Both the position numbers and the translations under genes were made by a program. From an uncultured bacterium (GTDB lineage Bacteria > Fidelibacterota > UBA2242): a stretch of 59,320 nt of DNA. The DNA lies in NCBI GenBank assembly GCA_964485475.1, contig CAZAKB010000001.1, positions 1 through 59,320 on the forward strand. Reading direction: 5' to 3'. Under the pieces are notes generated by a model. That model was not told where the DNA came from. It ran no database searches and was given only the letters and a program-made list of their open reading frames with translations. Of the stretch, positions 1 to 49,369 are shown in pieces. Position 1 is the stretch's first letter. Each line of letters begins with the position of its first letter.

Positions 1-80
1 AGGTAAGTTCTGGTTACTATTTTTATGTGATGGATTCTGATAATTTCCACAAAACACAAAAAATGCTGTTACTGAAATAG
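1..80 (+). CDS. 3' end of a gene truncated by the window edge. It encodes the last 25 aa of a T9SS-type C-terminal sorting domain.
   Basis: Frame 3 reads VSSGYYFYVMDSDNFHKTQKMLLLK*. This matches the ends of six other CTD proteins in the window (G-[IVL]-Y-F ... K-M-[IL]-L-L-K stop). Confidence 0.6.
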   Translation, partial: VSSGYYFYVMDSDNFHKTQKMLLLK

Positions 81-94
81 CAAAATGGTTCTTG

Positions 95-125
95 AAAAAA
101 GGCTGCCTTCGGGCAGCCTTTTTTT
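95..125 (+). terminator. Rho-independent terminator
   Basis: A-tract, then GGCTGCC (101-107), TTCG loop, GGCAGCC (112-118), then TTTTTTT (119-125). It sits directly after the stop at 78-80. Confidence 0.85.
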
Positions 126-239
126 ATCTTTTTCAGGAAAATGAAATAGTCAAATTAAGATAAAATATTGTTTCGTCATTTATTGTGAATATTTAAATGT
201 ACATAAGCAAAATATCATTGATTTCAGCGAACATTTTTA

Positions 240-300
240 TTGACTTTTTAGGCATTATTCTGCAAACTTAACCGGAATTAATATTTATGAATTAATATTC
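240..300 (+). promoter_or_regulatory. Conserved promoter/operator block, copy 1, upstream of the GDPD operon
   Basis: TTGACT (240-245), 17 nt, CAAACT (263-268), 6 nt, then GAATTAATATTTATGAATTAATATTC (275-300). The same 61-bp geometry recurs at 6739-6799. The 26-mer contains a 14-bp-spaced direct repeat of GAATTAATATT. Confidence 0.55.
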
Positions 301-372
301 AGTTCTTTTAAATGTTGGGTTTTTTAATAATATTCACAAATTACCCAAAACCACTGAATAAGGAATTTCAAA

Positions 373-1263
373 ATGAGATTGATACATATGGCAAGTTTAA
401 TTGTTCTGATGTTTATGGGATGTTCAAATAAAGTTGAACAACCGATGGACTTTTATAATAAATTGAACATTCTGCCCATTCAGGCACATCGCGGGGGTGG
501 ATTGGCGTTACCGGAAAATACATTGGAAACATTTGAAACCACCTGGTCCTGGAATATAATCCCGGAAGCTGATATCCGCACTACCAGTGATGACATTATT
601 GTGTGTATGCATGATGATACTGTCGGCAGAGTTGCACCAGACGCTTCAGAGCAACTTAAAAAATTGAAGTTTGAAGAACTCGATTTAAAAACTGTTAAAT
701 CATTGGATGTAGGTAGTTACCGGGGAAAACCCGGAGAGCGGATTCCGACCCTTGAAGAGGTGTTTTCTGTCATGCAGGGACACCCTGAAAAATTGATGTA
801 TCTGGATTATAAACACATTGATATGGATCGTCTAGCGGCGTTAGTCCATAAATATCGACTTGAAAAACAGATTATTTTTACTACAAAAGAACATAATTTG
901 ATTATAGAATGGAAAAAACGAATACCGGAGTCCTTGACTATGATCTGGATTGGTGGCTCATTGCAGAATAAAAAGGACACATTTTCAGCTCTTCAGAAAA
1001 CAAAATTTGAAGGATTGACCACATTACAGATCCATGTAAAGTTGGATAAAAGCGGACAATTTACACCGAATGCTGAATATCTGAAGACCTGCCAATCTGA
1101 AGTTGAACAATACGGAGTACTTTTCCAGGTCTTACCGTGGAAAATTAATAATCCAGAAGTTTATCAAAAATTAATGGATATTGGAGTTCGTTCGTTTGCA
1201 ACAGATTATTCTGAAATGACCGTTTCTGTTTATAACAACTACTTAAAAAACCGGAAAAATTAA
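373..1263 (+). CDS. Glycerophosphodiester phosphodiesterase (GDPD family) lipoprotein
   Basis: Lipobox LMFMGC. GDPD catalytic motifs are AHRGG..LPENTLETFE and PEADIRTTSDD..VCMHDDT. It is about 55% identical by eye to the paralogue at 17715-18617. Confidence 0.85.
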   Translation: MRLIHMASLIVLMFMGCSNKVEQPMDFYNKLNILPIQAHRGGGLALPENTLETFETTWSWNIIPEADIRTTSDDIIVCMHDDTVGRVAPDASEQLKKLKFEELDLKTVKSLDVGSYRGKPGERIPTLEEVFSVMQGHPEKLMYLDYKHIDMDRLAALVHKYRLEKQIIFTTKEHNLIIEWKKRIPESLTMIWIGGSLQNKKDTFSALQKTKFEGLTTLQIHVKLDKSGQFTPNAEYLKTCQSEVEQYGVLFQVLPWKINNPEVYQKLMDIGVRSFATDYSEMTVSVYNNYLKNRKN

Positions 1264-1296
1264 AGATGACAAGGTGAAAATCAGGAGTATAACGAG

Positions 1297-2685
1297 GTGA
1301 TTTTACACGAAATAGAAACCGCTCAGCGTATTAATAATGCACTGAAAACGGCCGATACTACAAAATTGATTGAAATCGGTTCAGGCGCAATTCAAAAAAC
1401 AGGACCAGTATTTAAAAAGTGTTTCAACAATGCTCCAGCCATTATTATTGCAGATTCAAACACCTATAAAGCAGCGGGTAAGCTGGTTGAAAATAGTCTT
1501 AAATCGGGTGATATCGATCTTCAAAAAACATTTATAATGACCGATCCGGATTTGTATGCTGAAATAAAGTACATTGATCAATTAGTCAAACTGTTATCAG
1601 AAACAAATGCTATTGCGATTGCGGTTGGTTCCGGCACGATTAATGATCTGACAAAACTGGCTTCTTATCGCTGTGGCAGGCAATACATGTCCATTGCTAC
1701 GGCCGGGTCGGTTGATGGTTATACGGCATTTGGTGCATCGATTACCGAAAGGAGCTTCAAGCAGACGTTTTTTTGCCCTGCACCAATGGCAGTAATTGCA
1801 GATCTGGATGTGATCGCCGATGCACCTTTGGAAATGAACGCCTGGGGTTATGCCGACCTGTTGGCAAAAATTCCTGCCGGCGCGGATTGGATTATTGCGG
1901 ATGCCATTGGCGTAGAACCAATTGATAAAATATCATGGACACTGGTTCAGGGACCTCTTCGAAAATTAGTTTCTGATCCAACGGGAGTTAAGCACAAAAA
2001 TCATCAGGCACTGTGTTTTTTAATGGAAGGCCTGATCATGAGTGGCCTGGCAATGCAGCAGGCACAATCGTCACGACCGGCTTCAGGTGCAGAACATCAG
2101 TTCAGTCATCTCTGGGACAATCAACATCACAAGCACAATGGTCAAACACCTTCCCATGGATTTAAAGTTGCAATTGGATCACTGGCGTCTCTGGCATTGT
2201 ATGAAACCCTATTCGATCTTTGGGGAGATTCGACGAAGATTATGCTTAAAGATGTCCATTCTTACTGGAAAAATTTTTCTGATATTGAAAAAGAGATCCA
2301 CCATAAATTCCCGGATCCTGTTGAAGCAATGCTGGTAATTGAACAAAGCAGAGAGAAGTATATTGATTTCACTGATCTGGAAAAGCGGCTGATACGAGTA
2401 GCTGAAATATGGCCGGAATTAAAAGGTATGCTGGAACAACAGTTAATGGGATATTTGGAATTTAAAACAATGTTACAGCAGGTTGATGCTCCTATATCAC
2501 CGATGAATATCGGCATTGAATTAGGACGATTAAAAGAGAGTTATGGACTTGCCCAATTGATCCGGAAACGTTATACAATTCTGGATTTTGTGAAGGAACT
2601 CGGAATATTTGAGACCTGTGTAAATAATATATTTAACTCTGAAAAATACTGGAAATCTGAAACAGAACAACCGGGTAACCGATAA
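1297..2685 (+). CDS. sn-glycerol-1-phosphate dehydrogenase-like protein (Fe-ADH_2 / AraM-EgsA family), 462 aa
   Basis: GTG start 10 nt after AGGAG. Motifs are AVGSGTINDLTK (nucleotide loop), ATAGSVDGYTA, a D....AP....G.AD block and SGAEHQFSHLWD (metal-binding His pair), as in AraM/EgsA-type enzymes. It is longer than canonical enzymes of about 350-395 aa. Confidence 0.65.
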   Translation: MILHEIETAQRINNALKTADTTKLIEIGSGAIQKTGPVFKKCFNNAPAIIIADSNTYKAAGKLVENSLKSGDIDLQKTFIMTDPDLYAEIKYIDQLVKLLSETNAIAIAVGSGTINDLTKLASYRCGRQYMSIATAGSVDGYTAFGASITERSFKQTFFCPAPMAVIADLDVIADAPLEMNAWGYADLLAKIPAGADWIIADAIGVEPIDKISWTLVQGPLRKLVSDPTGVKHKNHQALCFLMEGLIMSGLAMQQAQSSRPASGAEHQFSHLWDNQHHKHNGQTPSHGFKVAIGSLASLALYETLFDLWGDSTKIMLKDVHSYWKNFSDIEKEIHHKFPDPVEAMLVIEQSREKYIDFTDLEKRLIRVAEIWPELKGMLEQQLMGYLEFKTMLQQVDAPISPMNIGIELGRLKESYGLAQLIRKRYTILDFVKELGIFETCVNNIFNSEKYWKSETEQPGNR

Positions 2686-2690
2686 CATAT

Positions 2691-3530
2691 ATGAGCAAAC
2701 AAGTGATTGATTTGGAGCAACTTTCGAAAATATGTCATATAGTCCTCGATATGGATGGGACTATTTATAATGGAAACAAACTGTTTGACTTCACACCTAA
2801 GTTTTTCAACACACTAAAAGAGTTGAATATCCATTATACATACCTGACCAATAATTCTTCCAGAAATGTTACCCAATACCTTGAAAAATTGCAGGGTATG
2901 GGACTCAAAGGTACAAAGGATAATATTTATACATCCTCTTTGTCAACGATAGATTATCTGGTATCTGAGCGTAAAGAAATCCGAAAACTGTATGTACTGG
3001 GTACAGAGGGTTTAAAATCTGAGTTTCGTGAATCCGGTTTTCAAGTGATAAACGATGAAAATGAAGAAGATCCTGATGCAGTTATTGTTGGTTTTGACAC
3101 ATCTCTGGACTTTGAACATTTATGTAAGGCCGGATACTGGATCAAGTTAGGGAAACCGTTTATTGCAACGCATCCGGATCGTATCTGCCCAACAGATCAG
3201 CCCACCTTACTTGTGGACTGTGGCGCTATTTGTGCCTCACTGGAATCAGCCACCGGCCGAGCTCCAGATAAAGTTTTGGGTAAACCCGATCCCGGTATGA
3301 TTTGGGGCATAATGGATCGTAATGGATTAAAAAAAGAGGAGGTTGCGATGGTTGGCGATCGTCTCTATACGGACATTGAAATGGCTCATCGGGCCGGGGT
3401 AATGGGGATTTTGGTATTATCCGGAGAGGCGACGCGGGATGATGCGAAAACCAGCACTACCCGACCGGATTTGATCGTTAAAAATATTGAAATTCTAGGG
3501 GAATTATTGATCGAAAGTCGCAACCAATGA
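2691..3530 (+). CDS. HAD-IIA family sugar-phosphate phosphatase (NagD/AraL-like)
   Basis: Motif I is VLDMDGTIY, motif II LTNNSS, and motif IV MVGDRLYTDI. At 279 aa it resembles B. subtilis AraL. Confidence 0.8.
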   Translation: MSKQVIDLEQLSKICHIVLDMDGTIYNGNKLFDFTPKFFNTLKELNIHYTYLTNNSSRNVTQYLEKLQGMGLKGTKDNIYTSSLSTIDYLVSERKEIRKLYVLGTEGLKSEFRESGFQVINDENEEDPDAVIVGFDTSLDFEHLCKAGYWIKLGKPFIATHPDRICPTDQPTLLVDCGAICASLESATGRAPDKVLGKPDPGMIWGIMDRNGLKKEEVAMVGDRLYTDIEMAHRAGVMGILVLSGEATRDDAKTSTTRPDLIVKNIEILGELLIESRNQ

Positions 3531-3572
3531 AAAAAGCCACATCTTCAGACTATGGAATACGGGAGTAATTAG

Positions 3573-4958
3573 ATGTTTTTAAGCAATATGTTCAGCTTTC
3601 TCAAAGTAGCACCGGATATACCCCGAATAGCCGACGACAGTGAGATGCGCAAACAGTACAAATATTGGCGTTTCAGGGTAATGTATGCAATGCTATTTGG
3701 CTATATTGGATTTTATTTTGTCAGAAAAAGTCTTGCAGTAGCGATGCCGGTCATCGAGCAGGAATTTAATATTCCGAAAGCGCATCTGGGATTAATTCTT
3801 ACGGCGTTTGGGGTAACCTATGGAATTTCAAAGTTTATCAACGGTTTTGCAGGAGATCGAACAAATCCACGGTATTTTATGGCTTTAGGATTGGTTTGTT
3901 CAGCGATTATTAATGTATTTTTCGGATTAAGTAGTGGAGTTATCGCCTTTGGCATTTTCTGGATTCTGAATGGCTGGTTCCAGGGCATGGGTTGGGCCCC
4001 TAATAGCCGCACATTGGTAAACTGGTATTCTGCCAAAGAAAGAGGAGTCAGGTTTTCAATAACAAATTCCGCTGTTTCGATTGGGGCTTCTGGGGTTGTA
4101 TTTTTGAATGGATTTTTAATTGTGCGGTATGGTTGGCGGTCCTGTTTTTTTGTACCAGCCGGAATAGCCGTACTGGCAGCATTATTTGTTTTAAATCGAC
4201 ATCGTGATCGGCCTCAGTCACTGGGTCTTCCTCCGGTTGAGGAATATATGGGTGAAGAGGCTGATATTACTGATACGGATGTGGGAAAAAGTATACCCTA
4301 TAAAGACATTGTAATGAAATATATTTTTAAAAATCCAGGAATGTGGATTGTCTGTCTTGCCAATCTTTTTTTATATGTTATTCGATATTCGGTTTTGGAT
4401 TGGGGAACAACGTTCTTGACGGAGAGCAAGGGGGCCGATATAACCCAGGCCGCCTGGATTGTCGGCGGTTATGAATTGGCCGGTCTTGCGGGAATGCTGG
4501 TAGGTGGATGGGCTATGGACAAGCTGTTTAAAGGCTATGGTGGCAGGACCTGTGCCATATATATGGCGTTATGCGGGATTTTTATTTTCCTTTTTTGGAG
4601 ATTGCCGATCCAGTCTGTTTATATCAATGGATTATTAATATGGGGGGCAGGTTTTATGATTTACGGGCCACAGTGCCTGGTAGCAGTAATTGCGGCCAAT
4701 ATGGTGCCGAAAAGTGCTGGCGCTGCCGCTATTGGATTAACAGGATTATTTGGCTATATGAGTACGGTGATTTCCGGCTGGGGACTAGGTGCAATTGTTG
4801 ATAGATATGGGTGGAATACCGGCTTTTTACTTTTGGTATTCTCGGCTGTTATTGCGATGATTTTATTTATTCTGTTATGGAATAGCAATCCCCATCTGCC
4901 TGGGACAAAGGCTTATGCAGAACATGGGAATAATAAACTTTCCGGCAGTGCAGCTTAA
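3573..4958 (+). CDS. glpT: MFS organophosphate:phosphate antiporter (GlpT/UhpT/UhpC family)
   Basis: It aligns by eye along its whole length with E. coli GlpT. Shared blocks are YFVRKS.AVAMP, GISKFI.G...DR.NPR, NGWFQGMGW.P, GLPP.EEY, LRY..LDWG.T.L, IYGPQ and GLTGLFGY. Substrate assignment is by context only. Confidence 0.8.
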   Translation: MFLSNMFSFLKVAPDIPRIADDSEMRKQYKYWRFRVMYAMLFGYIGFYFVRKSLAVAMPVIEQEFNIPKAHLGLILTAFGVTYGISKFINGFAGDRTNPRYFMALGLVCSAIINVFFGLSSGVIAFGIFWILNGWFQGMGWAPNSRTLVNWYSAKERGVRFSITNSAVSIGASGVVFLNGFLIVRYGWRSCFFVPAGIAVLAALFVLNRHRDRPQSLGLPPVEEYMGEEADITDTDVGKSIPYKDIVMKYIFKNPGMWIVCLANLFLYVIRYSVLDWGTTFLTESKGADITQAAWIVGGYELAGLAGMLVGGWAMDKLFKGYGGRTCAIYMALCGIFIFLFWRLPIQSVYINGLLIWGAGFMIYGPQCLVAVIAANMVPKSAGAAAIGLTGLFGYMSTVISGWGLGAIVDRYGWNTGFLLLVFSAVIAMILFILLWNSNPHLPGTKAYAEHGNNKLSGSAA

Positions 4959-5034
4959 TGAACGCGAAATAGTAAGTTTCTCTATTGCTAATTGAATTAA
5001 AATTAATGGATAAAATAGATATGGAAAAAGAAAG

Positions 5035-5487
5035 TTGAAAATAGCAATTGACTGTGACAACGCAGCCACTGACCTGAAAAAAGTGGTGTATGAATACCTG
5101 AGAGATTCAGGAGTAAATATTACCGATTTAAATTACAGTGCGGCAAAACCTGCCATGTATCCTGAAATTGGATATAATCTGGCGTTGAAGGTCCAAAAGG
5201 GTGAGTACGATCGGGGTATTCTGATCTGTGGTACCGGGCTTGGTATGGCAATAATTGCAAATAAAGTTGAAGGCGTTTACGCCGGAGTGTGTCACGATGT
5301 CTATTCCGCTGAACGTTTAATGAAAAGTAATAATGCCCAGGTATTAACAATGGGTGCGCGAGTGATTGGCGCTGAGTTGGCCAAGATGATTGTTGATGCC
5401 TGGTTAAATTCGGAATTCAGCGGTGGGCGATCACAGCCAAAGGTTGAAGAAATAAAAGACTTGGAACACCAGTCATTTCATTCCTGA
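5035..5487 (+). CDS. rpiB: Sugar-phosphate isomerase, RpiB/LacA/LacB family (ribose-5-phosphate isomerase B-like)
   Basis: A TTG start gives (M)KIAIDCDNAA. Family motifs are GILICGTGLGMAIIANK and GARVIG. The 150-aa length is typical. Confidence 0.8.
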   Translation: MKIAIDCDNAATDLKKVVYEYLRDSGVNITDLNYSAAKPAMYPEIGYNLALKVQKGEYDRGILICGTGLGMAIIANKVEGVYAGVCHDVYSAERLMKSNNAQVLTMGARVIGAELAKMIVDAWLNSEFSGGRSQPKVEEIKDLEHQSFHS

Positions 5488-5534
5488 AACGATACGGTTC
5501 CATTATCTCTCTTCTCGTTTCTCCTCTTCACAAA

Positions 5535-5581
5535 TTCTCTCAACATCCCAGTTTTACCAGGGTGTTGGGAGAATTTCTTTT
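5535..5581. terminator. Hairpin terminator between the convergent rpiB and SorC-family genes
   Basis: Arms 5535-5549 and 5560-5573 form 14 bp with one bulged T around a 10-nt loop. TTTCTTTT follows on the + strand. Confidence 0.6.
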
Positions 5582-5591
5582 ACAGACGATT

Positions 5592-6515
5592 TCAGGATAA
5601 TTCTAATAACGCTTTCGCACCGATATCATCGATGATTATCGAATTTATTAAATTACCTTTTATGGCAGCTGCGAGCGCTTCCGCGCGATTGGCTCCGCTG
5701 GTAACAGCAATTACCTGGGGAATCTTTTTCAACTGTTCCAGACTTACACCGATAACATGATTGCGATATTCCGTATCGCATTCTTCACCGGATTTGTTGA
5801 AAAAGTGGCCACATATTTCTCCAACAACGCCTTTTTGAATCAGGTAATTGATATCGTTTGTCTTAAGAAAATCCCGGTCATAAAACACAGAATTACCGTG
5901 CATACCCACTCCGACAAAAGCCAGATCGGCATTCCCGATCCGGGACAACACAAATTTTATTTGATCGTGAGAAACAAAGGCATCATGGGTGTGGCTATTG
6001 GTAGTAATTGCTGGTGCCTGAAGCCGTAAAAATTGACCATTCCAGCGCTTGGAAAGTTTCCGAGTGATCTCAATTGCATCATCCTCTTTAATGTGTGTAC
6101 TTATATCTCCCATAGCCTGAATAAATGTCACTCCTGGTTTGTTTCCCGAAGGAAACATATTGTCAGTCAGGCTGTTGATATGTCGGCCCGCTGCAACACA
6201 AATGGCAGAATTGGGTTGAATCATACAACTTACAATCGGACCGGCGAAATGACCCAAAGCACGTCGCCGATTTTCCTCAGAATGCCCGGGGGTTGTCTTA
6301 ATCACCACAACTGTGCCCAGATTATGGATTTTTTTAATTTTATCTTCAATTTCGTTGTCTCTGGGCGAAAAAGGTTTGACTGATATCTGGACGATACCAC
6401 GCTTGCGGGCTTCTTCCAATAAACGTGATACCGTTGCTTGCGAAATTCCGGCCAATTCCGAAACTTTGGCCTGTCCAAGACCCTCGAGATAATAAAGTGT
6501 TGATACTAAAAGCAA
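5592..6515 (-). CDS. SorC/DeoR-type sugar-binding transcriptional regulator
   Basis: N-terminal HTH: LYYLEGLGQAKVSELAGISQATVSRLLEEARKRGIVQI. The C-terminal sugar-phosphate binding domain contains AFVGVG and VGEICG. The start is uncertain: TTG at 6515 has no SD, and ATT at 6542 has a well-spaced GAGG. Confidence 0.8.
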   Translation of the reverse strand: MLLVSTLYYLEGLGQAKVSELAGISQATVSRLLEEARKRGIVQISVKPFSPRDNEIEDKIKKIHNLGTVVVIKTTPGHSEENRRRALGHFAGPIVSCMIQPNSAICVAAGRHINSLTDNMFPSGNKPGVTFIQAMGDISTHIKEDDAIEITRKLSKRWNGQFLRLQAPAITTNSHTHDAFVSHDQIKFVLSRIGNADLAFVGVGMHGNSVFYDRDFLKTNDINYLIQKGVVGEICGHFFNKSGEECDTEYRNHVIGVSLEQLKKIPQVIAVTSGANRAEALAAAIKGNLINSIIIDDIGAKALLELS

Positions 6516-6738
6516 TAAATCGTCGGATACATTAATCTTAATGGTTTACCTCACTTTAAAATGAACAGTTTCTTGATTCCCCTAGATCATCCTGACAGAA
6601 AAATAAGATATTTAGAATATTTATACAACTACAAAAAAACATATTATGAACATGTTCGTTGAAACAATAGTATTTTCTCCCAGATTTATTAATTTATCCA
6701 TGGGCAATAAAGAAAAAGATGGTTATATGAAAAACTTG

Positions 6739-6799
6739 TTGACTTTTACTTGCAAAGATTGCAAACTATGAAAGAATTAATATTTATGAATATATATTC
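6739..6799 (+). promoter_or_regulatory. Conserved promoter/operator block, copy 2, upstream of the TBDR operon
   Basis: TTGACT (6739-6744), 17 nt, CAAACT (6762-6767), 6 nt, then GAATTAATATTTATGAATATATATTC (6774-6799). The 26-mer matches copy 1 at 24 of 26 positions with identical spacing. Confidence 0.55.
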
Positions 6800-6928
6800 T
6801 ATACATTATCTCAGGTTATGCTAAAAAATAAAACACAAAAAATAAGCCAAACAAAAAACATCTCCCTAAATGATGATTTCAGGCTTTTACCATGTCAACT
6901 GATAATCATTTTATGAAAAGAATCCAGT

Positions 6929-9664
6929 ATGCTTAATTTGTCGGAGATTTTAATGAATAAACGATCTGTTATTGCTACTTTAATAATTACCGCTTTATTT
7001 CGGGTCGCTTTTTCGGGTACAACCGGTAAAATCAGCGGTAAGATTATAGATGCAAATACAAGTGAACCGGTTATTGGAGCCAATATCTATCTTGAAAATA
7101 CCGATTACGGTGCTGTATCCGACGTTGATGGAAATTATTTTATCATCAATGTCTCACCGGGAATGTATAGCCTGGTATGTTCATTTATTGGATATGAGAA
7201 AATCACATATACCGGGATTTCGGTCAGTGTGGACAGAACATCGTCGATGAATTTTGAAATTAAACCGGAAACGATTCAGGGCAAAGAAGTTATCGTTGTT
7301 GGTGAACGTAAAGTAATTGAAATGGACCGGACGAACACAGCTGCCTATGTCTCTTCCGAAAACATTGAAAAGATGCCAGTTCAGGAATTAGACGATCTGA
7401 TCCAGCTTCAGACTGGTGTTGTGAAAGATGCCAGTGGTGAATTCCATATTCGGGGTGGTCGGGCTGGTGAGATTGCTTACTTAATTGATGGTGTTCCCAT
7501 TACCGATCAGTACAATGGTGGCAGTTCAATCGGTCTGGAAAACAATTGGGTACAGGAACTTCAGGTTATCAGCGGCACGTTTAATGCTGAATACGGACAG
7601 GCTCAGTCCGGTGTGGTTAATATCGTGACAAAAGAGGGTGCTAAGCAATTTAAGGGAAATATTTCTGTTGCGATGGGGGATTATTTATCCACCCATAATG
7701 ATGTATTTATGAACATTGATCATCTGAACATAGGCGAAACGGATATTAGCACCAATCTTCAGGGACCATTTCCGATTATCCCAAAGGGCTCATTCTATAC
7801 ATCACTACGCTATTATACGACCGATGGGTGGCTATACGGACAACGGAACGTGCGGATTGAGGACACTGTGCCGATTCAGCAATATATTAACCAGGCCAAT
7901 AAAACGTATAGCTCAGATCAAACCCTATACGGAATTCCGATTTCCGATTCTTTGCAAACCGGTGATGGCGAATATATTCCAATGAACTGGAAGAACAAAC
8001 TTTCGTTCTATGGAAAATTGACCACAAAACTGGGTCCGGCGAAAATCAATTACTCACTATTTTATAATGACGATAAAAGTAAAAGTTATTCGGATGCTTA
8101 CCGATATGCTCCCGATGGTGTCCGGACGAATTATGGGACAAGTTTCAATCACATACTTAGTTTTAATCATGTGTTGAGCAACAGCACGTTTTATGTGTTT
8201 AATCTTTCATGGTACTCGAAAAACACCCAGGCCTATTTATTTGAAGATCCGCTGGATAACCGCTATCAAGGGGCGGCTTATTCTGCAGACGGATTTTCCT
8301 ATGGCGGAACACAAAAAGGACGGTATGATATTACCCGGTCGGCGATATCTTCCAAGTTTGACTTTACCAGCCAGGTGAATATAGCAAACCAGATTAAATC
8401 CGGCATTGAACTTAAACAGCATAATCTGAAATACATCCTTCTGGAAACAGTTGCAGAAGGTCCTACATATGAATATCCGGACTTACGCATTCCCGCTCAA
8501 ATTACAGTAGGAAACGATCGATATACAGTAAAACCGATGGAAGCATCGGCATACATTCAGGATAAAATTGAATTAAATGAATTGATAATGAATTTTGGGC
8601 TGCGATACGATTTCTGGGATCCCAATGCCGTCGTTCCGGATACTTTGCGGGCCGCAGCAGATTCAGGTACTATTCGACTTGGTACAACGTTCTCTGACGC
8701 CAAAACACAATCTCAAATCAGTCCCCGTTTTGGTCTTGCTTTTCCGATTTCCTCAAATGGTGTCATACATGCATCCTATGGACACTTTTTTCAGTTACCC
8801 CGCTTTGAAGCAATTTACAGTAATTATGAATGTGAGATCGAACTCGGCAGTTTACAGTCCAAACTCGGAAATCCAAATCTGAAACCTGAGAAAACAGTCA
8901 GCTATGAAATCGGCTTGCAGCAGGAAATGCTGGGACATTTTGCACTGGACGTGACGGTGTTTTACAAAGACATCAAGAACCTGCTCAGCCAGGAGATCGT
9001 GTCAACAATCGATAAAAAAGTATATGCTCGGTATATCAATCGCGACTACGGGAATGTTAAAGGATTTACAATATCCTTTAAAAAAGGCCGGGGATATTCC
9101 GATTTCATGTCCGCGTCGGTGGATTATACGTATCAGGTAGCCCGGGGAAATGCTTCTGATCCAAATGCGATATTTACAAATTTTCAATCCGATCCGCCGA
9201 AGGAGCCTGAAAAACAGGTATTACCGTTGGATTGGGACCAAACTCATACCCTGAATGCCTCTCTGGCTATTGGTAATCCCTCGGATTGGAACCTGGGAGT
9301 AATTGGACGGTTTGCGACGGGGCAACCATATACTCCCAAAAATCCTGGTAGTGCCCTGACAGCCCAATTTGAAAATAGCGACCGCAAACCTGTAACCTTT
9401 AATATTGATTTAACGTTCTACAAGTTCGTTTCATTGTCTGAATTCAAAGTCAAGTTGTTCTGTAAAGTATTTAATTTAACTGACCGATTGAATGAAATAA
9501 AAGTATATTCAGGTACGGGTAGTGCCGATTATAATTATCGGACAATGGCGGACCGATTGGCATTATTACGAAATCCGAATTTTACAATTAAACAAATTGA
9601 CCTTAGACCGGATTACTATTCTGAGCCGCGCAAAATTCTTGTTGGTATCAGCGTAGATTTTTAA
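6929..9664 (+). CDS. TonB-dependent outer-membrane receptor with an N-terminal carboxypeptidase-regulatory-like domain (SusC-like architecture)
   Basis: CarbopepD_reg motif: GKISGKIIDANTSEPVIGANIYLENTDYGAVSDVDGNYFI. Plug motif: HIRGGRAGEIAYLIDGVPI and NAEYGQAQSGVVNIVTK. The barrel ends in a terminal F. The start may be the internal ATG at 6953 (MNKRSVIATL). Confidence 0.85.
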   Translation: MLNLSEILMNKRSVIATLIITALFRVAFSGTTGKISGKIIDANTSEPVIGANIYLENTDYGAVSDVDGNYFIINVSPGMYSLVCSFIGYEKITYTGISVSVDRTSSMNFEIKPETIQGKEVIVVGERKVIEMDRTNTAAYVSSENIEKMPVQELDDLIQLQTGVVKDASGEFHIRGGRAGEIAYLIDGVPITDQYNGGSSIGLENNWVQELQVISGTFNAEYGQAQSGVVNIVTKEGAKQFKGNISVAMGDYLSTHNDVFMNIDHLNIGETDISTNLQGPFPIIPKGSFYTSLRYYTTDGWLYGQRNVRIEDTVPIQQYINQANKTYSSDQTLYGIPISDSLQTGDGEYIPMNWKNKLSFYGKLTTKLGPAKINYSLFYNDDKSKSYSDAYRYAPDGVRTNYGTSFNHILSFNHVLSNSTFYVFNLSWYSKNTQAYLFEDPLDNRYQGAAYSADGFSYGGTQKGRYDITRSAISSKFDFTSQVNIANQIKSGIELKQHNLKYILLETVAEGPTYEYPDLRIPAQITVGNDRYTVKPMEASAYIQDKIELNELIMNFGLRYDFWDPNAVVPDTLRAAADSGTIRLGTTFSDAKTQSQISPRFGLAFPISSNGVIHASYGHFFQLPRFEAIYSNYECEIELGSLQSKLGNPNLKPEKTVSYEIGLQQEMLGHFALDVTVFYKDIKNLLSQEIVSTIDKKVYARYINRDYGNVKGFTISFKKGRGYSDFMSASVDYTYQVARGNASDPNAIFTNFQSDPPKEPEKQVLPLDWDQTHTLNASLAIGNPSDWNLGVIGRFATGQPYTPKNPGSALTAQFENSDRKPVTFNIDLTFYKFVSLSEFKVKLFCKVFNLTDRLNEIKVYSGTGSADYNYRTMADRLALLRNPNFTIKQIDLRPDYYSEPRKILVGISVDF

Positions 9665-16617: not shown

Positions 16618-17712
16618 TTGACTACTAAAGAACGAATGCTGGCTGTGTACAATAACCAGCAACCCTATTATATCCCGGTTTCCATATATTCCCGTTTCTT
16701 GAAAAGGGGAACACAGGAACGTGAAGCCCGCCGGCTTGGAATGGGAATAATTGATTATGTTCCGATTACATCTTTGATTGCGCCGCCCTGGCATTTGACG
16801 CAGGGATTCTTCTCGGAAGTAAAAAACGCTGAATTTAATATTCGTTATATCTGGCAAAATGGTGAAATCAGTGAAATCCGTACAATAAACACACCCGTTG
16901 GTTCTGTGTCTCAGCATCTTCGTAAAGATCCATCCTATGGCACTGATTGGGTTGATAAATTCTATATCGCCTGTCCTGAGGATTATAAGGTCATGCAATA
17001 TATTATTGAAAATACCATTAGTCGTCCTAATGAGAAGGCATTGTTGAAAAAACAAAATGAATTGGGGGATGATGGCGTCGTTCTTGGCCGTTTGGATCGA
17101 TGTCCCTTTCAAAAGATGCTGATTGAAATTGCAGGACCGGAGCAGTTCCTGGTAGATATTGCCACAGATTTTGCTCCAGCTATCGAATTATTGGAAGTGC
17201 TTGAGAAAAAAATGGATGAACAACTGGACATAGCGGTTAATTCCGCCGCCGAAATATTCTGGTCGCCGGAAAATGTAACCTGTGATATGACACCGCCATA
17301 CTACTATGAAAAATACTGCCTGCCACATTATAAAAAACGAGCGGAACGTTTAAATAAAACAAACAAACCGCTTTTTTTGCATTTTGATGGTCGTCTGAAA
17401 CCGCTGACAAGACTAATTGCTGATACCCCGATAAACGGAATTGAGTCATACTCTCTGCCTTTGGTGGGTAATGATCTGTCATTTTCTGAGGCCCAGGAAG
17501 CCTGGCCGGGTAAGGCTATCCTTCCGAATTTTCCGTCAACGCTTTGTTTGAAAGATGATTCTGAAATAGAAGCATTTCTTGAACAGATGTTGACCGAGAT
17601 TTTACCACAAACTTCAGTAATGCTTCAGATCAGCGAAGATCTTCCCGAAGAACACTATTATCGGGTATCAAGCCTGTTGGTCAGATTTATGCGGGAAAAG
17701 GGGAGGTATTAA
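16618..17712 (+). CDS. Uroporphyrinogen-decarboxylase (URO-D/MtaA-like) family protein, putative
   Basis: A TTG start gives an N terminus, TKERMLAVYNNQQPYYIPVS, that resembles the family-typical ..ER.LAAL.GE.PDRVPV. Length (364 aa) fits. No further motifs could be verified by eye. Confidence 0.4.
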   Translation: MTTKERMLAVYNNQQPYYIPVSIYSRFLKRGTQEREARRLGMGIIDYVPITSLIAPPWHLTQGFFSEVKNAEFNIRYIWQNGEISEIRTINTPVGSVSQHLRKDPSYGTDWVDKFYIACPEDYKVMQYIIENTISRPNEKALLKKQNELGDDGVVLGRLDRCPFQKMLIEIAGPEQFLVDIATDFAPAIELLEVLEKKMDEQLDIAVNSAAEIFWSPENVTCDMTPPYYYEKYCLPHYKKRAERLNKTNKPLFLHFDGRLKPLTRLIADTPINGIESYSLPLVGNDLSFSEAQEAWPGKAILPNFPSTLCLKDDSEIEAFLEQMLTEILPQTSVMLQISEDLPEEHYYRVSSLLVRFMREKGRY

Positions 17713-17714
17713 AA

Positions 17715-18617
17715 ATGAATAGAGTCAATTCAAGAATAATATCTTTCGCTTTTCTTGCTTTTCTATTGGCAGGCTGTTCTTCAGAAACCGATAATCCAGG
17801 AAAATTGTTCAAGCAGCTGAATGTAATTCCGATCGAAGCCCATCGTGGTGGTGGATTTCTCTTGCCTGAAAATACTTTAGAGACATTTGAATATACCTGG
17901 AACCAGAGATTGTTCCCAGAAGCGGATATTCGGACAAGCAAAGATGATGTAATCATTTGTATGCACGACGATACTCCGAGACGACTAGCACCTGATACAC
18001 CCGTTGATTTAATTGATAAAGATTTCAGTGAGATGAATCTAGCGACGGTTAAGACCCTTGATGTTGGCATCTTTCGTGGCAAACCTGGTGAACGGGTACC
18101 AACTCTGGAAGAGGTTTTTCAGGTTATGCAAGGTAAACCGGAACGGTTTCTAGCGCTTGACTATAAAGATATTGATCTGGATCGGCTGGCTGATATGGTA
18201 AGACAATATCATCTTGAAAAACAGGTTATTTTCACGTCACAGTATTATCATCTGATTCGGGAATGGAAAAAGCGGATTCCGGAATCCCTGACCATGATGT
18301 GGATGGGGACAAAACAAATTGATATCGAAAATAAAATAAGTATGCTAGAGGCTGCTGAATTTAAGGATATTTCAATCATTCAGGTTTACTTTGTGGCCAA
18401 TAAAGAGGCGCAAAATGGTAAAATACTTACGAATGCGAAGTTCTTTGCGGATAAAAGAAAACAAGTAGAAGCACATGATATTTTATTTTTGGTTTTTTCT
18501 TGGAAGGATGATCGGCCGGAAGTCTATCAAGAGCTAAAGGATTTGGGAATACAGGCATTTGCAACGGATTATCCTGAAATGGCTCGAAACGTATATCTGG
18601 GAAACGATAATCAATAG
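17715..18617 (+). CDS. Glycerophosphodiester phosphodiesterase (GDPD family) lipoprotein, second paralogue
   Basis: Lipobox LLAGC. Motifs are AHRGGGFLLPENTLETFE, PEADIRTSKDD and ICMHDDT. It starts 2 nt after the preceding stop. Confidence 0.85.
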   Translation: MNRVNSRIISFAFLAFLLAGCSSETDNPGKLFKQLNVIPIEAHRGGGFLLPENTLETFEYTWNQRLFPEADIRTSKDDVIICMHDDTPRRLAPDTPVDLIDKDFSEMNLATVKTLDVGIFRGKPGERVPTLEEVFQVMQGKPERFLALDYKDIDLDRLADMVRQYHLEKQVIFTSQYYHLIREWKKRIPESLTMMWMGTKQIDIENKISMLEAAEFKDISIIQVYFVANKEAQNGKILTNAKFFADKRKQVEAHDILFLVFSWKDDRPEVYQELKDLGIQAFATDYPEMARNVYLGNDNQ

Positions 18618-27462: not shown

Positions 27463-28577
27463 TGGCCAAACTTCTTCTGAAAAAACTTTACAAGCGTTAT
27501 TCCAATAAACATAGCAAATTACAGAATGATTTTGCGGTGAATGATTTTTCGCTGGAGTGTAACGATGGCGAGTTCGTCGGTATTTTGGGACCATCGGGTT
27601 GTGGAAAAACGACTACACTGAGGATGATTGCGGGTCTGGAAGATATTACCGCCGGGGATATTTTTATTGGTAATACTAGAATCAATGATTTGCATCCGAA
27701 AGATCGCCAAATCGGGCTAGCTTTTGAAGATTATGCGTTATATCCGCCACTGAATGTCTATGACAATATCGCTTTTAATTTAAGAGCGAAAAAGGTGAAG
27801 GAGGCCGATATTCTGTCTGAGATTAAGCGTATTGCACCATTACTGAAAGTTGACGATCTGCTGGATAGCCGGCCGGTATCGTTGAGCGGTGGACAGAAAC
27901 AACGGGTAAATATTGCCAGGGCAGTCATACGTAAACCAAAATTACTTTTACTTGATGAACCACTGTCTCATCTCGACGGTAAAATGCGTCAGGTTCTGCG
28001 TACTGAGATCAAGCGGCTGCACAAGGAGATCAACTGTACGACGATTATTGTCACCCATGACCAGCTGGAAGCCATGTCACTGGCAGATCGGATTGCCATT
28101 ATGAAAGATGGTAAGCTGCAACAATACGGGACACCACTGGAGATATACAATTATCCGGTTAATGAATTTGTGGCCGGATTTATTGGTGAACCACCGATGA
28201 ATATAATGACAGTGACAGTTTCGAAGACAGATGGTGTATTCTTTTTCAATTTTTCGGGAACTGATGTCAGCATTCCTGTCCCTACACAGTACTATCCGCA
28301 TGTGCAGGAAGGTGGAACGGTACGGTTTGGGATTCGGCCATCGGACGTATTGATCGGACAGCAAAGTAGCATGGGATCAATGGTCCAGGTAGCGGTTTTC
28401 GAGAATTTGGGAGAAGAGTGTCGAATCAGTATCAGGGTAGGAGATGATTACCTTACTATGACGACTTCAGAAGAAATCCGCTACCGACAAGGTGATGTTA
28501 TTAAACTGGTAGTTAAGTCAGACCGAATCCATCTTTTTAACCCGGTGAGTGGTGATCGATTAGGAGAGAAGATTTGA
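27462..28577 (+). CDS. ABC transporter ATP-binding protein, MalK/UgpC-like, second distinct subunit
   Basis: Walker A is GPSGCGKTT. The Q-loop reads AFEDYALYPP, again Glu for Gln. The signature is the canonical LSGGQKQRV. Walker B is LLLLDEPLSHLD and the H-loop IVTHD. Its start overlaps the upstream stop (TAATG). Confidence 0.9.
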   Translation: MAKLLLKKLYKRYSNKHSKLQNDFAVNDFSLECNDGEFVGILGPSGCGKTTTLRMIAGLEDITAGDIFIGNTRINDLHPKDRQIGLAFEDYALYPPLNVYDNIAFNLRAKKVKEADILSEIKRIAPLLKVDDLLDSRPVSLSGGQKQRVNIARAVIRKPKLLLLDEPLSHLDGKMRQVLRTEIKRLHKEINCTTIIVTHDQLEAMSLADRIAIMKDGKLQQYGTPLEIYNYPVNEFVAGFIGEPPMNIMTVTVSKTDGVFFFNFSGTDVSIPVPTQYYPHVQEGGTVRFGIRPSDVLIGQQSSMGSMVQVAVFENLGEECRISIRVGDDYLTMTTSEEIRYRQGDVIKLVVKSDRIHLFNPVSGDRLGEKI

Positions 28578-30250
28578 TGAGTTCAGAAAAATACAGCATT
28601 GGTGTGGATTTCGGGACCCTATCGGCCCGGGCGGTAATTGTAAATGTCAAGACCGGTGAAGAATTAGCGACGGCTGACAGTAGATACCGGCACGGTGTTC
28701 TGGATAAATTTCTTCCCGATGGAAAAACCATTGTTCCACCAAATTGGGCGCTGCAATATACTGGTGATTACCTGAATGCTATTTCTGAGGTAATTCCGTT
28801 GGTCATAAATAAAGCCGGAATCAGTGCCGATGATGTCATTGGGCTTGGTACTGATTTTACAGGAAGCACGATTGCACCGATTGACGCCGATGGCATTCCT
28901 TTATGTATGAAAGAGGAATTTAAAAACAATCCCCATGCCTATGTTAAATTATGGAAACATCATGGTGCTCAACAAGAGGCACTGGGTATTACCCGAATTG
29001 CAAAAGAGCGCAAGGAATCCTTTTTACAGCGCTACGGTGGCATGATTTCATCGGAAATGATGCTGCCAAAAATCTGGCAGACTCTCAATGAGGCACCGGA
29101 AATCTATCAGGCAGCTGATCGATTTATCGAAATGTGCGATTGGATCACGTTGTACCTGACTGGCAAAGAGCGACGCAGTGCTTGCGCTGCCGGGTACCGG
29201 GCATTATGGGATAAACTGGAGGGTTATCCTTCCGAAAAATTTTTCAGGGCATTAGATCTGCGGTTGGAAAATGTTGTAGATGAGAAACTCGGTCGTGATG
29301 TTTATGCGGTTGGATCAAAAGCCGGAGAATTAACAGCGGCTGCAGCCCGGATTACCGGCCTGAATACAGGGACAGCGATTGCAGTAGGAATTATTGATGC
29401 CCATGCAGGATTGCCGGGAGTCGGAATTACCGAACCCGGAAGACTGGTAATGATTATGGGTACATCAGGATGTGATTTGATTCTTGATGTGGAAAGGAAA
29501 GACGTACCTGGCATTTTCGGTGTCGTTACGGATGGAATCATTCCCGGTTATTTTTCCTATGAAGCGGGACAAACCGGGCTTGGCGATATTTATCAATGGG
29601 CAATTGACAACTGTGTATCTGAGACATATTACAAGGAGGCTGAACGTCGGAATCTCAGTATATTTCAACTTATGAATGATAAAGCCGCCGTATTGGCTCC
29701 CGGTGAATCGGGATTACTCGCACTGGATTGGTGGAATGGTAATCGATCGGTGCTGATGGATTTTGATCTCAGTGGATTGATGGTGGGATACACATTATCC
29801 ACAAAGCCAGAGGAAATATACAGGGCATTATTGGAAGCAACAGCCTTTGGCAAACGGAAAATTATTGAGAATTACCTGGAGTATGGAATTCAAATTAATG
29901 AAATCATTGCTGCCGGTGGAATTCCCGATAGGAACCCATTGTTGATGCAGATTTTTGCGGATGTATTGGAAAAGGAAATTAAAATTACGAATTCTCAGCA
30001 TTCGACTGCCCTTGGCGCAGCGATCCTGGGGGCCGTAGCTGCCGGAGAGGGGTGCGGCGGTTATAGTACAATCCGAGAAGCAGCAAAATCAATGGCAAAA
30101 AATAAGACTAAATCAATCCGGCCAATTCCAGAAAATTCAGTTGTTTATAATAAACTTTATAACGAATACCTGGTTTTACATGATTATTTTAGGCGTGGTG
30201 GGAATGATGTGATGAAACGGATAAGGAAAATCCGGAATGACGTTAAATAG
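28577..30250 (+). CDS. araB: Ribulokinase (FGGY carbohydrate kinase, AraB-type)
   Basis: The N terminus YSIGVDFGTLSARAVIVNVKTGEELA and the C-terminal GGIPDRNPLLMQIFADVLEKEIKI...ALGAAILGAVAAG match AraB of B. subtilis and E. coli. Length is about 557 aa. The ATG overlaps the upstream TGA (TGATG). Confidence 0.8.
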   Translation: MSSEKYSIGVDFGTLSARAVIVNVKTGEELATADSRYRHGVLDKFLPDGKTIVPPNWALQYTGDYLNAISEVIPLVINKAGISADDVIGLGTDFTGSTIAPIDADGIPLCMKEEFKNNPHAYVKLWKHHGAQQEALGITRIAKERKESFLQRYGGMISSEMMLPKIWQTLNEAPEIYQAADRFIEMCDWITLYLTGKERRSACAAGYRALWDKLEGYPSEKFFRALDLRLENVVDEKLGRDVYAVGSKAGELTAAAARITGLNTGTAIAVGIIDAHAGLPGVGITEPGRLVMIMGTSGCDLILDVERKDVPGIFGVVTDGIIPGYFSYEAGQTGLGDIYQWAIDNCVSETYYKEAERRNLSIFQLMNDKAAVLAPGESGLLALDWWNGNRSVLMDFDLSGLMVGYTLSTKPEEIYRALLEATAFGKRKIIENYLEYGIQINEIIAAGGIPDRNPLLMQIFADVLEKEIKITNSQHSTALGAAILGAVAAGEGCGGYSTIREAAKSMAKNKTKSIRPIPENSVVYNKLYNEYLVLHDYFRRGGNDVMKRIRKIRNDVK

Positions 30251-34620: not shown

Positions 34621-34660
34621 ACGAAAAATAACGAAATATAACGAAACTTATGCGAAAATG
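34621..34660 (+). repeat. Four helically phased (10-bp period) [AG]CGAAA repeats abutting the LacI start codon
   Basis: The units are ACGAAAAATA, ACGAAATATA, ACGAAACTTA and TGCGAAAATG. They share the CGAAA half-site with the palindrome at 34521-34534. Confidence 0.5.
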
Positions 34661-34669
34661 GAGATATTC

Positions 34670-35674
34670 ATGACAACTATTAGGGATATTGCGAAAGAAG
34701 CAAACTGTTCACTGGCAACAGTTTCTAAAGCAATTAACGGCAGATCGGATGTCAGTGAATCTACGCGTGTTCGAATATTGAAAATTGCTAAAGAACACAA
34801 TTTTGTGCCAAGTGCCTTTGGGAAAGGATTGAAAAATGGCAAGACTGAGAATATTGGTGTTATTTTTTGCCGGGAATCACAACCTTTGTCACTAAATCCG
34901 TTTTATTCCAGGGTACTGGAAGGTATCGAAGCGGAGTTGGCAATAAATAATTATAACCTGGTTTTGCATATGTTGCCTGAAGAATACAGGGACGAATATC
35001 CGAAAATGTTGAAGGAGCGAAACGTAGATGGTGTAGTATTGATTGGTGTTCTTCAGGAGAAATTTATCAGTCAATTGAAAAAACAAAATATTCCTACAAT
35101 TCTTATAGATCCAAAAATCATTACAAAAGAATTCAATCAGGTGTTAATTGATAATGAACACGGGGCCTATTTAGCTACACAATATCTAATTAATAAAGGA
35201 CATAAACGAATTGCTTTCATATCCGGCGACTTAGAACGCGAAAGTTTTCGACAACGGTATTCCGGCTTTAAAAAAGCAATGAATCATTACAAATTAAATA
35301 TTGGTGACAATTATATCCAGACAGGTGGTCTTGAAAATGGGTACGAACTCGTTTCGGCGTTGCTGAATCAGAAGGACCGGCCAACGGCAATATTTGCTGC
35401 AAATGATATCAACGCTATTTATGGTTATCGGGCCATAAAAGATTGCAATTTTCAGATTCCTGAACATATTAGTATTATTGGATTTGATGACATTGAATTA
35501 GCCAAAATGGCTACGCCACCATTAACGACAATTCGAGTTTATAAAGAGGAAATGGGATCGATAGCCGTAAGAAATTTACTCCAAATAATTAACAAGGAAA
35601 CTGATCGGCCAATGTCAGTTTTAGTACCAGTCAGACTGATTGAACGAAGTTCAGTCAATGCTTTAAATGGATAA
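34670..35674 (+). CDS. LacI-family transcriptional regulator
   Basis: The HTH is MTTIRDIAKEANCSLATVSKAINGRSDVSESTRVRILKIAKEHNFVPS. A periplasmic-binding-protein-like sugar domain follows. An alternative ATG at 34658 is 4 codons upstream. Confidence 0.9.
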   Translation: MTTIRDIAKEANCSLATVSKAINGRSDVSESTRVRILKIAKEHNFVPSAFGKGLKNGKTENIGVIFCRESQPLSLNPFYSRVLEGIEAELAINNYNLVLHMLPEEYRDEYPKMLKERNVDGVVLIGVLQEKFISQLKKQNIPTILIDPKIITKEFNQVLIDNEHGAYLATQYLINKGHKRIAFISGDLERESFRQRYSGFKKAMNHYKLNIGDNYIQTGGLENGYELVSALLNQKDRPTAIFAANDINAIYGYRAIKDCNFQIPEHISIIGFDDIELAKMATPPLTTIRVYKEEMGSIAVRNLLQIINKETDRPMSVLVPVRLIERSSVNALNG

Positions 35675-35720
35675 TCTTGCTGATAAATGCTTTCAATAAC
35701 AATGTAACAGGAGGTAAAAA

Positions 35721-38708: not shown

Positions 38709-38725
38709 TTCTCCTTTTTAATACT

Positions 38726-41975: not shown

Positions 41976-41997
41976 CCTTTGATTTGGAGTAAAGTTG

Positions 41998-43056: not shown

Positions 43057-43067
43057 TCCCGGAGGTT

Positions 43068-46685: not shown

Positions 46686-46686
46686 A

Positions 46687-49365: not shown

Positions 49366-49369
49366 TCTA

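Follow-up and report, generated by a model that had tools for sequence, protein, structure and literature searches.

We describe a five-gene operon at positions 373-5487 of a 59,320-nucleotide stretch of DNA from an uncultured bacterium (GTDB lineage Bacteria; Fidelibacterota; UBA2242), here called the window (GenBank assembly GCA_964485475.1, contig CAZAKB010000001.1, forward strand), and we read it as one unit under the control of a SorC-type regulator, forming the cytoplasmic arm of a system for the utilization of phosphodiester-linked polyol phosphates. Its most likely role is the oxidation of sn-glycerol-1-phosphate (G1P), on which all archaeal lipids and type I lipoteichoic acids are built, and we put the probability of this reading at about 50%. 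Candidate materials include polymers resembling teichoic acids, head groups of deacylated phospholipids, and further glycerophosphodiesters. The operon combines a glycerophosphodiester phosphodiesterase (GDPD), a dehydrogenase of the AraM/EgsA family, a phosphatase of the HAD family, a transporter of the major facilitator superfamily (MFS), and an RpiB-family isomerase, preceded by the terminator of the gene upstream:

93-126, + strand: intrinsic terminator of the upstream gene (15-pair stem, then T-run)
373-1263, + strand: GDPD-family phosphodiesterase, lipoprotein, 296 amino acids (PF03009)
1297-2685, + strand: Fe-ADH_2 protein (AraM/EgsA family, long clade), predicted NAD(P)-dependent polyol-phosphate dehydrogenase, 462 amino acids (PF13685)
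2691-3530, + strand: HAD-IIA (NagD/AraL-type) phosphatase, 279 amino acids (TIGR01460)
3573-4958, + strand: GlpT/UhpC-like organophosphate:phosphate antiporter (MFS), 461 amino acids (similarity to 1pw4)
5035-5487, + strand: RpiB-family isomerase with DerI/EryI-like signature, 150 amino acids (NF004051, residue pattern)

The five open reading frames (ORFs) of the preliminary description are borne out at these coordinates and on this strand, as are all five family assignments (Pfam, NCBIfam, and solved-structure matches), including those of a secreted GDPD lipoprotein, an AraL-like HAD phosphatase, and an organophosphate:phosphate antiporter. From GDPD to RpiB, the intergenic gaps measure 33, 5, 42, and 76 nucleotides, with no terminator-like site found on the + strand between the five genes. 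On its 5' side the operon is bounded by the strong terminator at 93-126; a hairpin and T-run lie 3' of RpiB (~5539-5585), ahead of the convergent SorC-type gene, and positions 1-7000 gave no RNA family or riboswitch match in Rfam. GDPD matches PF03009 with E=1e-19 (72 bits versus a gathering score of 23.6), has the catalytic motifs HRG, ENT, ExD, and HD all intact in its translation, and begins with a lipoprotein-type signal whose lipobox reads LMFMGC|S; it falls far under the equivalog cut-offs of both the UgpQ-type model (50.5 bits versus 264) and the GlpQ-type model (16.5 versus 254). The HAD-IIA protein exceeds the TIGR01460 cut-off (134.6 bits versus 100.15) and reaches no equivalog, with Thermotoga maritima 1vjr as its best solved structure (E=1e-58) and a further likeness to the Mycobacterium tuberculosis glycerol-3-phosphate phosphatase 4i9f (E=8e-26). 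For the MFS protein the best solved structure is Escherichia coli GlpT (1pw4, E=1.3e-89), and the positions aligned with GlpT R45, K80, and R269 are unchanged, including the two substrate-binding arginines, R45 and R269, with Val aligned to His165. The Val may mean another organophosphate substrate, and the protein scores under all NCBIfam equivalog cut-offs, including those of GlpT, UhpC, and PgtP.

The dehydrogenase matches PF13685 with E=1e-32. When a profile of its clade, built from 66 long-clade members, is scored against relatives of solved structure, we observe the strongest match with Bacillus subtilis AraM (9h4x, E=1.7e-65), followed by the archaeal G1P dehydrogenases (E=7e-35 to 1e-28), glycerol dehydrogenase (2e-14), and dehydroquinate synthase (7e-4); the NCBIfam glycerol dehydrogenase model gives 41 bits for the window enzyme. 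The predicted AlphaFold model (mean predicted local distance difference test score, 93.6; predicted template modeling [TM] score, 0.93) likewise has AraM 9h4x as its best Foldseek match in the PDB, with a target-normalized TM-score of 0.83, followed by 3ce9 and the M. jannaschii enzyme. The 462-amino-acid enzyme thus groups, by profile E-values and predicted structure, with the G1P dehydrogenases and nearest to B. subtilis AraM, and not with glycerol dehydrogenase (GldA) or dehydroquinate synthase, in line with the G1P dehydrogenase family first proposed for it.

The Asp/His/His zinc ligands are conserved across G1P dehydrogenases (PMC6737245). Alignment to these ligands assigns a predicted metal triad, D187/H267/H287, which is invariant in 66/66 clade members. 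H271, R260, R423, and R425 are invariant in the same 66, and these residues and the triad align with AraM and with the M. jannaschii and P. calidifontis G1P dehydrogenases. Three motifs, SRPASGxEHxxSH (259-271), DW (197-198), and RxRxTxL (423-429), are also invariant throughout the clade; they are present in validated G1P dehydrogenases and not in E. coli GldA. Where AraM and the M. jannaschii and P. calidifontis enzymes are identical (51 columns), the clade keeps 34 columns and E. coli GldA 23. We take the GldA segment aligned with the SRPASG loop to be the one that contacts C3 of glycerol in structure 1JQA, and if this contact holds, the phosphate would lie one carbon from the oxidized center, as it does in G1P.

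With respect to length, the enzyme exceeds AraM (395 amino acids) by 67 amino acids and the archaeal enzymes by approximately 125, taking as archaeal reference the 5fb3 chain of 338 amino acids (328-337 residues modeled). The surplus had been described as a C-terminal extension of roughly residues 330-462, which we can exclude: alignments to the M. jannaschii G1P dehydrogenase and to AraM leave the query at ~303-309, re-enter it at ~376-388, and end at 429-437, indicating that the surplus is an internal insertion (~305-385) plus a tail of ~25 amino acids. In the predicted model the insertion is confidently folded as helices (320-323, 327-337, 341-354, and 358-382), disorder is limited to residues 456-462, and two residues of the insertion, K354 and W372, are invariant in 66/66 clade members.

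The long clade (~455 amino acids) comprises 712 clusters at 50% identity with E 1e-30 or better, and its full-length matches (~430-460 amino acids) reach down to ~30% identity. The nearest named homologue of the window enzyme belongs to Candidatus Neomarinimicrobiota (72% identity), with 77% identity in locus L006. On two Marinimicrobia contigs (L001 and L003) the entire arrangement is syntenic, running from GDPD through the dehydrogenase (63% and 55% identical), HAD, MFS, and RpiB to a convergent SorC gene, a TonB receptor, and a protein of ~1033-1045 amino acids. A homologue scan with one genome per species yielded 80 further loci (43 to 77% identity) from Planctomycetota, Verrucomicrobiota, Bacteroidota (Proteiniphilum, Pedobacter, Prevotellaceae, and Bacteroides), Solirubrobacterales, Spirochaetia, and Sumerlaeales, and the ~85 loci span at least five phyla, with elements of the cassette found again in Planctomycetota, Verrucomicrobiota, Bacteroidota, and Actinomycetota. 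Partner genes were counted by tblastn in the flanks of the 85 non-redundant loci, many of which lie on short contigs:

GlpT-like MFS: 43/85 loci
GDPD: 26-28/85 loci
HAD-IIA: 27/85 loci
SorC, adjoining the dehydrogenase: 25/85 loci
GlpD-like FAD dehydrogenase: 13/85 loci
RpiB: 10/85 loci

A typical order elsewhere is SorC-(RpiB)-GDPD-dehydrogenase-MFS-HAD-GlpD-like, with the cassette GDPDs carrying signal peptides and the GlpD-like partners scoring 264-322 bits versus GlpD equivalog cut-offs of 352-360.

Some partners are also fused to the dehydrogenase. GDPD-dehydrogenase fusions make up four cluster representatives; the one whose sequence was read (P0134) is without a signal peptide, has a GDPD domain resembling the window GDPD, and sits on a 2.6-kb contig. 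Three further cluster representatives are DUF1667-dehydrogenase fusions, one of them adjoining DAO and Pyr_redox genes of the glycerol-3-phosphate dehydrogenase complex type, and a single RpiB-dehydrogenase fusion occurs as a stand-alone gene in two independent assemblies. Some fusions may be gene-call merges. Other fusion partners of the long-clade enzyme are a SorC sugar-binding domain, an AraC helix-turn-helix, and a NadD-like nucleotidyltransferase, and the fusion proteins are P0127, P0129, P0134, P0135, P0128, P0043, P0057, P0165, P0259, and P0156. We rejected a reading of P0156 as a "TagD-like" fusion: its domain is cytidylyltransferase-like, but its motifs GSFNPIHIGH and ISSTEIR look like those of NadD, and P0156 is not used here as evidence for glycerol phosphate.

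FGGY kinases near the cassette were likewise considered as glycerol kinases and rejected, being of ribulokinase or pentulose-kinase type and not GlpK; ribulokinase equivalogs lie in the window (28574-30250; 712 bits versus 428) and in the planctomycete loci L081 (15187-16671) and L054 (12736-14229). In a neighbor-joining tree, RpiB-linked and GlpD-like-linked dehydrogenases are interspersed, and sub-functionalization was discarded as no residue discriminates the two sets, indicating that the clade seems to have a single specificity.

The operon shares its control region with a much larger set of genes downstream, and the following features bear on this:

240-300, + strand: promoter-like module TTGACTTTT-N12-TGCAAACT, then 26-nucleotide operator-like repeat GAATTAATATTTATGAATTAATATTC (comparison of both upstream regions)
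5592-6515, - strand (convergent): SorC/DeoR(Bsu)-type regulator with sugar-phosphate-binding domain, 307 amino acids (PF04198, E=2e-53, 181.6 bits)
6739-6799, + strand: second copy of the same module, upstream of the TonB-receptor operon
6929-33892, + strand: co-regulated uptake/hydrolysis operon or operons, ~27 kb, resembling a polysaccharide utilization locus (Pfam, NCBIfam)

The 26-mer GAATTAATATTTATGAATWWATATTC follows the module at both copies (275-300 and 6774-6799), with these two sites being the only ones in the 59-kb window (0 expected by chance), and the module is kept in L001 ahead of both operons and in L003 ahead of the TonB-receptor operon. It was found by comparing the two upstream regions and not by a sigma-70 promoter scan, the matches of which were no commoner than in shuffled sequence. 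The regulator has helix-turn-helix-type matches at residues 6-43 and the same position in L001 and L003, where the TonB receptor and the 1033-amino-acid gene also follow it, and we infer that the 26-nucleotide repeat is its operator. The genes between 6929 and 33892 encode, in order, a TonB-dependent receptor, a 1033-amino-acid protein with no family match in Pfam or NCBIfam, a PorV-like outer-membrane protein, an LTD protein of the type IX secretion system (T9SS), a URO-D-like protein, a second GDPD lipoprotein (17715-18617; 52% identical to the GDPD at 373-1263), a 664-amino-acid T9SS-tailed protein, a peptidyl-prolyl isomerase-like protein, a weak Zn-phospholipase-C-like protein, a CUT1-type ATP-binding cassette (ABC) transporter, the AraB-type ribulokinase mentioned above, and two metallophosphoesterases. 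The shared promoter/operator module leads us to regard the five-gene operon as the cytoplasmic arm of a ~34-kb locus for the utilization of a phosphodiester polymer.

A URO-D/MtaA-like gene directly adjoins a GDPD gene both in the window (16618-18617) and in Sedimentisphaerales (Planctomycetota; L088, 10398-12999), and a URO-D gene is also found near the dehydrogenase in L005. Further downstream, the window holds a second, LacI-controlled polysaccharide utilization locus (34658-53457) with a CBM9/T9SS protein, a TonB receptor, a PorV-like protein, a 1205-amino-acid protein without family match, and a SurA-like protein; it also has GlcNAc-2-epimerase-family, GH130, and GH26/T9SS genes, and these three correspond to the classical route for beta-mannan (mannanase, epimerase, and phosphorylase). 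It is followed at 53478-56507 by a 1009-amino-acid secreted (T9SS) metallophosphoesterase with carbohydrate-binding-like domains, the third secreted phosphoesterase of the window.

In the route that we propose, secreted T9SS enzymes and the TonB-dependent receptor of the downstream operon would carry fragments into the periplasm, where the two GDPD lipoproteins would cleave them to polyol monophosphates, to be exchanged for phosphate by the GlpT-like antiporter. In the cytoplasm, the AraM-like enzyme would oxidize the isomer that GlpD cannot use, most likely sn-G1P to dihydroxyacetone phosphate (DHAP), with the HAD-IIA phosphatase freeing phosphate and polyol from surplus or non-oxidizable monophosphates and the DerI-like RpiB turning a 2-ketose phosphate into an aldose phosphate. 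The gene families, the operon layout, the shared operator, the conservation of the cassette, and the fusion proteins are observed, and every substrate named here, the direction of the dehydrogenase reaction, and the site bound by the regulator are deduced from them. The catabolic direction, already considered in the preliminary description, gains support from the linkage of the dehydrogenase to secreted GDPDs, a GlpT-like importer, a sugar-phosphate-type regulator, and GlpD-like dehydrogenases across many phyla, as well as from the GDPD-dehydrogenase fusions. We favor G1P as the substrate because all characterized relatives are G1P dehydrogenases and the putative phosphate loop by the metal site is unchanged; because of the GDPD linkage and fusions, the DUF1667 and GlpD links, and the GlpT-like importer; and because an AraB/AraL/AraM-type trio is also found in B. 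subtilis, whose AraM has been proven to be a G1P dehydrogenase. More tentatively, and with somewhat less than even odds in our estimate, the long AraM-like clade together with a dedicated GDPD subfamily may constitute the missing bacterial route of sn-G1P catabolism, with the cassette GDPDs releasing the sn-1 isomer. The G1P would then derive from polymers of the lipoteichoic-acid type, head groups of phosphatidylglycerol, or the debris of archaeal lipids, and many Planctomycetota, Verrucomicrobiota, Bacteroidota, and Marinimicrobia would have the route.

The RpiB-family protein fits this scheme least easily. It passes the subfamily model NF004051 (171 bits versus a cut-off of 135) and stays below the TIGR01120 equivalog (138.5 bits versus 138.65). 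By alignment it matches E. coli RpiB at Cys66 and Thr68 and departs from it at four other canonical positions (His10 to Asn, His99 to Ser, His134 to Ser, and Arg137 to Lys), these residues serving in ring opening and phosphate binding; the PDB entries 1nn4 and 2vvr differ by H99N alone at that site. We observe that this residue pattern is invariant in the 120 closest RpiB homologues and present in 8/8 cassette RpiBs of other phyla. These homologues, from Bacillota, Bacteroidota, and Marinimicrobia, share 70-75% of their residues with the window RpiB, with three of the four whose context was retrieved (L089-L092) lying between AP_endonuc_2 and Dak1/Dak2 kinase genes. Much of the pattern is shared by PDB 5ifz (no His at 10, 99, or 134; SNNAQ motif), which passes the D-erythrulose-4-phosphate isomerase equivalog NF051858 (251 bits versus 240), a model for which the window RpiB scores 163 bits, under the cut-off. 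From its residues the window RpiB looks like a DerI/EryI-type enzyme for a short, non-cyclizing ketose phosphate, which fits a module that oxidizes a C4 or C5 polyol phosphate to the 2-ketose phosphate and then isomerizes this to the aldose phosphate. Tetritol and erythrulose catabolism has kinase and LerI/DerI isomerase steps (PMC10733421).

Several points weigh against G1P oxidation. The dehydrogenase reaches 183 bits for the G1P dehydrogenase equivalog NF002022, whose cut-off is 413, and is therefore at most a member of the family and not the equivalog. At columns invariant among three validated G1P dehydrogenases the clade departs from them, with GExYS changed to (V/I)EPID (206-210) and with A183W, A214W, H420Q, and S144A, and given these changes and the insertion of ~80 amino acids, the pocket may differ from that of the G1P dehydrogenases. 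Approximately one-third of the loci have none of the partner genes, NAD-linked oxidation of glycerol phosphate is thermodynamically uphill, and a literature search of open-access text found no activity report for any long-clade member. RpiB occurs inside the cassette at varied positions in three phyla and is fused to the dehydrogenase once; DHAP needs no RpiB, and the RpiB signature would agree with a tetritol or pentitol phosphate at least as well as with G1P.

The points on RpiB and the pocket bear on a rather unlikely but substantial alternative, that the dehydrogenase is a 2-dehydrogenase for a longer D-configured polyol phosphate, with G1P at most a side substrate. It would convert D-erythritol-4-phosphate to D-erythrulose-4-phosphate, or D-ribitol-5-phosphate to D-ribulose-5-phosphate, from which RpiB would yield an aldose phosphate for the pentose-phosphate pathway, in parallel with the Brucella ery genes; the SorC regulator, GlpD-like dehydrogenase, FGGY kinase, and RpiB are of the same families as Brucella EryD, EryB, EryA, and EryI. 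The DerI/EryI-like pattern shared in large part with 5ifz, the presence of RpiB in 10/85 loci at varied positions together with its fusion in two assemblies, the ribulokinase-type kinases near the cassette, and the changed pocket columns and insertion, which fit an altered substrate, all agree with such a role. So does the placement of RpiB homologues beside Dak1/Dak2 and AP_endonuc_2 genes, which would fit the kinase and LerI/DerI isomerase steps of tetritol catabolism. However, the characterized relatives are all G1P dehydrogenases with the same putative phosphate loop by the metal site, RpiB is absent from ~88% of loci, and RpiB- and GlpD-linked enzymes are interspersed in the tree without a discriminating residue. 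In addition, the GDPD fusions and the links to DUF1667 and the glycerol-3-phosphate dehydrogenase complex indicate glycerol phosphate, the window RpiB misses the DerI cut-off by the score given above, and erythritol-phosphate diesters are rare in nature.

We consider it improbable that the enzyme works biosynthetically, reducing DHAP to G1P for archaeal-type ether lipids, for a G1P-containing envelope polymer, or, with the HAD phosphatase, for free glycerol or polyol as a compatible solute, the GDPD and GlpT link then being incidental. Thermodynamics favors reduction, B. subtilis AraM and archaeal EgsA work in this direction, glycerol-producing pathways have this layout of a dehydrogenase adjoining a HAD phosphatase, and the third of loci without catabolic partner genes would be accounted for; in Streptomyces, araM lies in a teichoic-acid/secondary-metabolite region (PMC13118837). 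Against this, the gene sits between a secreted phosphodiesterase and an importer in the same operon, under an operator common to the TonB-receptor/hydrolase operon, and the GDPD-dehydrogenase fusions join a hydrolase directly to the enzyme. Nor did we find a GGGPS/PcrB or DGGGPS/UbiA-type gene in the window (ORFs of at least 120 amino acids) or in the fetched flanks; a PcrB-like match was also absent from the window and 92 loci, in a weak test with one query sequence. The supply of G1P for ether lipids, which the preliminary description had offered as a second option, is thus without support here, with no prenyltransferase gene found in the window and the dehydrogenase gene co-regulated with outer-membrane uptake and secreted hydrolases. 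Least probable of all, in our view, is phosphorus scavenging, in which GDPD, antiporter, and HAD liberate phosphate and the dehydrogenase and RpiB are housekeeping or hitch-hiking genes. The many phosphoesterases (two GDPDs, three metallophosphoesterases, and one phospholipase-C-like protein) suit this explanation, and RpiB could be the organism's sole ribose-5-phosphate isomerase, but the dehydrogenase is the most constant cassette member across phyla and is fused to GDPD, RpiB, and DUF1667, while the regulator is of the SorC sugar-phosphate type with no Pho-box-type control evident.

Comparison with known systems places the locus between several of them. B. subtilis AraM, a Ni2+-dependent sn-G1P dehydrogenase (PDB 9h4x), is the closest solved relative of the window enzyme and has its metal ligands and G1P dehydrogenase motifs in common with it; its activity was shown experimentally (Guldan 2008, as cited in PMC5059525). 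The araABDLMNPQ-abfA operon resembles the window locus in that an AraL-type HAD-IIA protein, an AraB-type ribulokinase, and a CUT1 ABC transporter accompany an AraM-type enzyme. Unlike AraM, which supplies PcrB, the window enzyme is presumed to be catabolic, is longer by its internal helical insertion, differs at several columns invariant in G1P dehydrogenases, and is surrounded by a secreted GDPD, a GlpT-like importer, and a SorC regulator instead of arabinose genes, with no AraA- or AraD-type family found among the scanned window ORFs of at least 120 amino acids. Archaeal EgsA (EC 1.1.1.261; PDB 4rgq and 5fb3) shares fold and catalytic motifs with the window enzyme, which differs from it in its length, in its NF002022 score, and in being bacterial and encoded in a catabolic-looking operon.

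The E. coli glpTQ/ugp genes and GlpQ-based teichoic-acid scavenging in B. subtilis follow the same logic of an extracytoplasmic GDPD combined with an antiporter-family transporter, with GlpQ being stereospecific for sn-G3P-type polymers (PMC7086022). The window differs from these in having a G1P dehydrogenase relative downstream (not only GlpD), a SorC regulator, coupling to a TonB receptor and T9SS, and a GDPD far below the GlpQ and UgpQ equivalogs. The Brucella ery genes (EryA, EryB, EryC, EryD, EryH, and EryI) and the tetritol pathway of Mycobacterium smegmatis (LerK, LerI, and DerI; PMC10733421) match in the families of SorC, GlpD-like dehydrogenase, FGGY kinase, and RpiB with DerI-type pattern, whereas the window operon is without an EryC- or EryH-type gene, has an Fe-ADH_2 dehydrogenase, a GDPD, and a GlpT-like importer instead, and encodes an RpiB below the DerI cut-off. 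Bacterial use of external G1P is likewise the subject of a 2025 study of the marine Phaeobacter proteins GpxB and UgpB, in which a marine bacterium grew with G1P as its only source of carbon, two transporters were found, and the use of archaeal G1P is stated as unknown (PMC12718374). That study concerns ABC-type binding proteins only and names no intracellular G1P-oxidizing enzyme, whereas the window offers an MFS antiporter and a candidate oxidizing enzyme.

In papers of 2020 and 2026, bacterial G1P dehydrogenases are still treated as rare and limited to "a few bacteria, notably Bacillus" (PMC13400652, PMC7852524). NCBI already labels many long-clade proteins "sn-glycerol-1-phosphate dehydrogenase," so that the family itself is already known, and we found no published account, in open-access text, of the long clade with its insertion, of its conserved catabolic cassette, or of a bacterial G1P-oxidizing route. 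The cassette provides a concrete candidate pathway for bacterial G1P use and ties a large branch of this enzyme family to uptake and hydrolysis genes, with cultured carriers that include Singulisphaera acidiphila DSM 18658 and Proteiniphilum sp. X52. If the substrate is instead a longer polyol phosphate, the cassette would represent a new route for phosphorylated polyols, in which an enzyme with the G1P dehydrogenase fold feeds a DerI-like isomerase. Either way, the automatic label "sn-glycerol-1-phosphate dehydrogenase" in these phyla should not count as evidence for archaeal-type lipid synthesis, and if the proposed route of sn-G1P catabolism is true, the "archaeal" enzyme family of the lipid divide has a large catabolic branch in bacteria.

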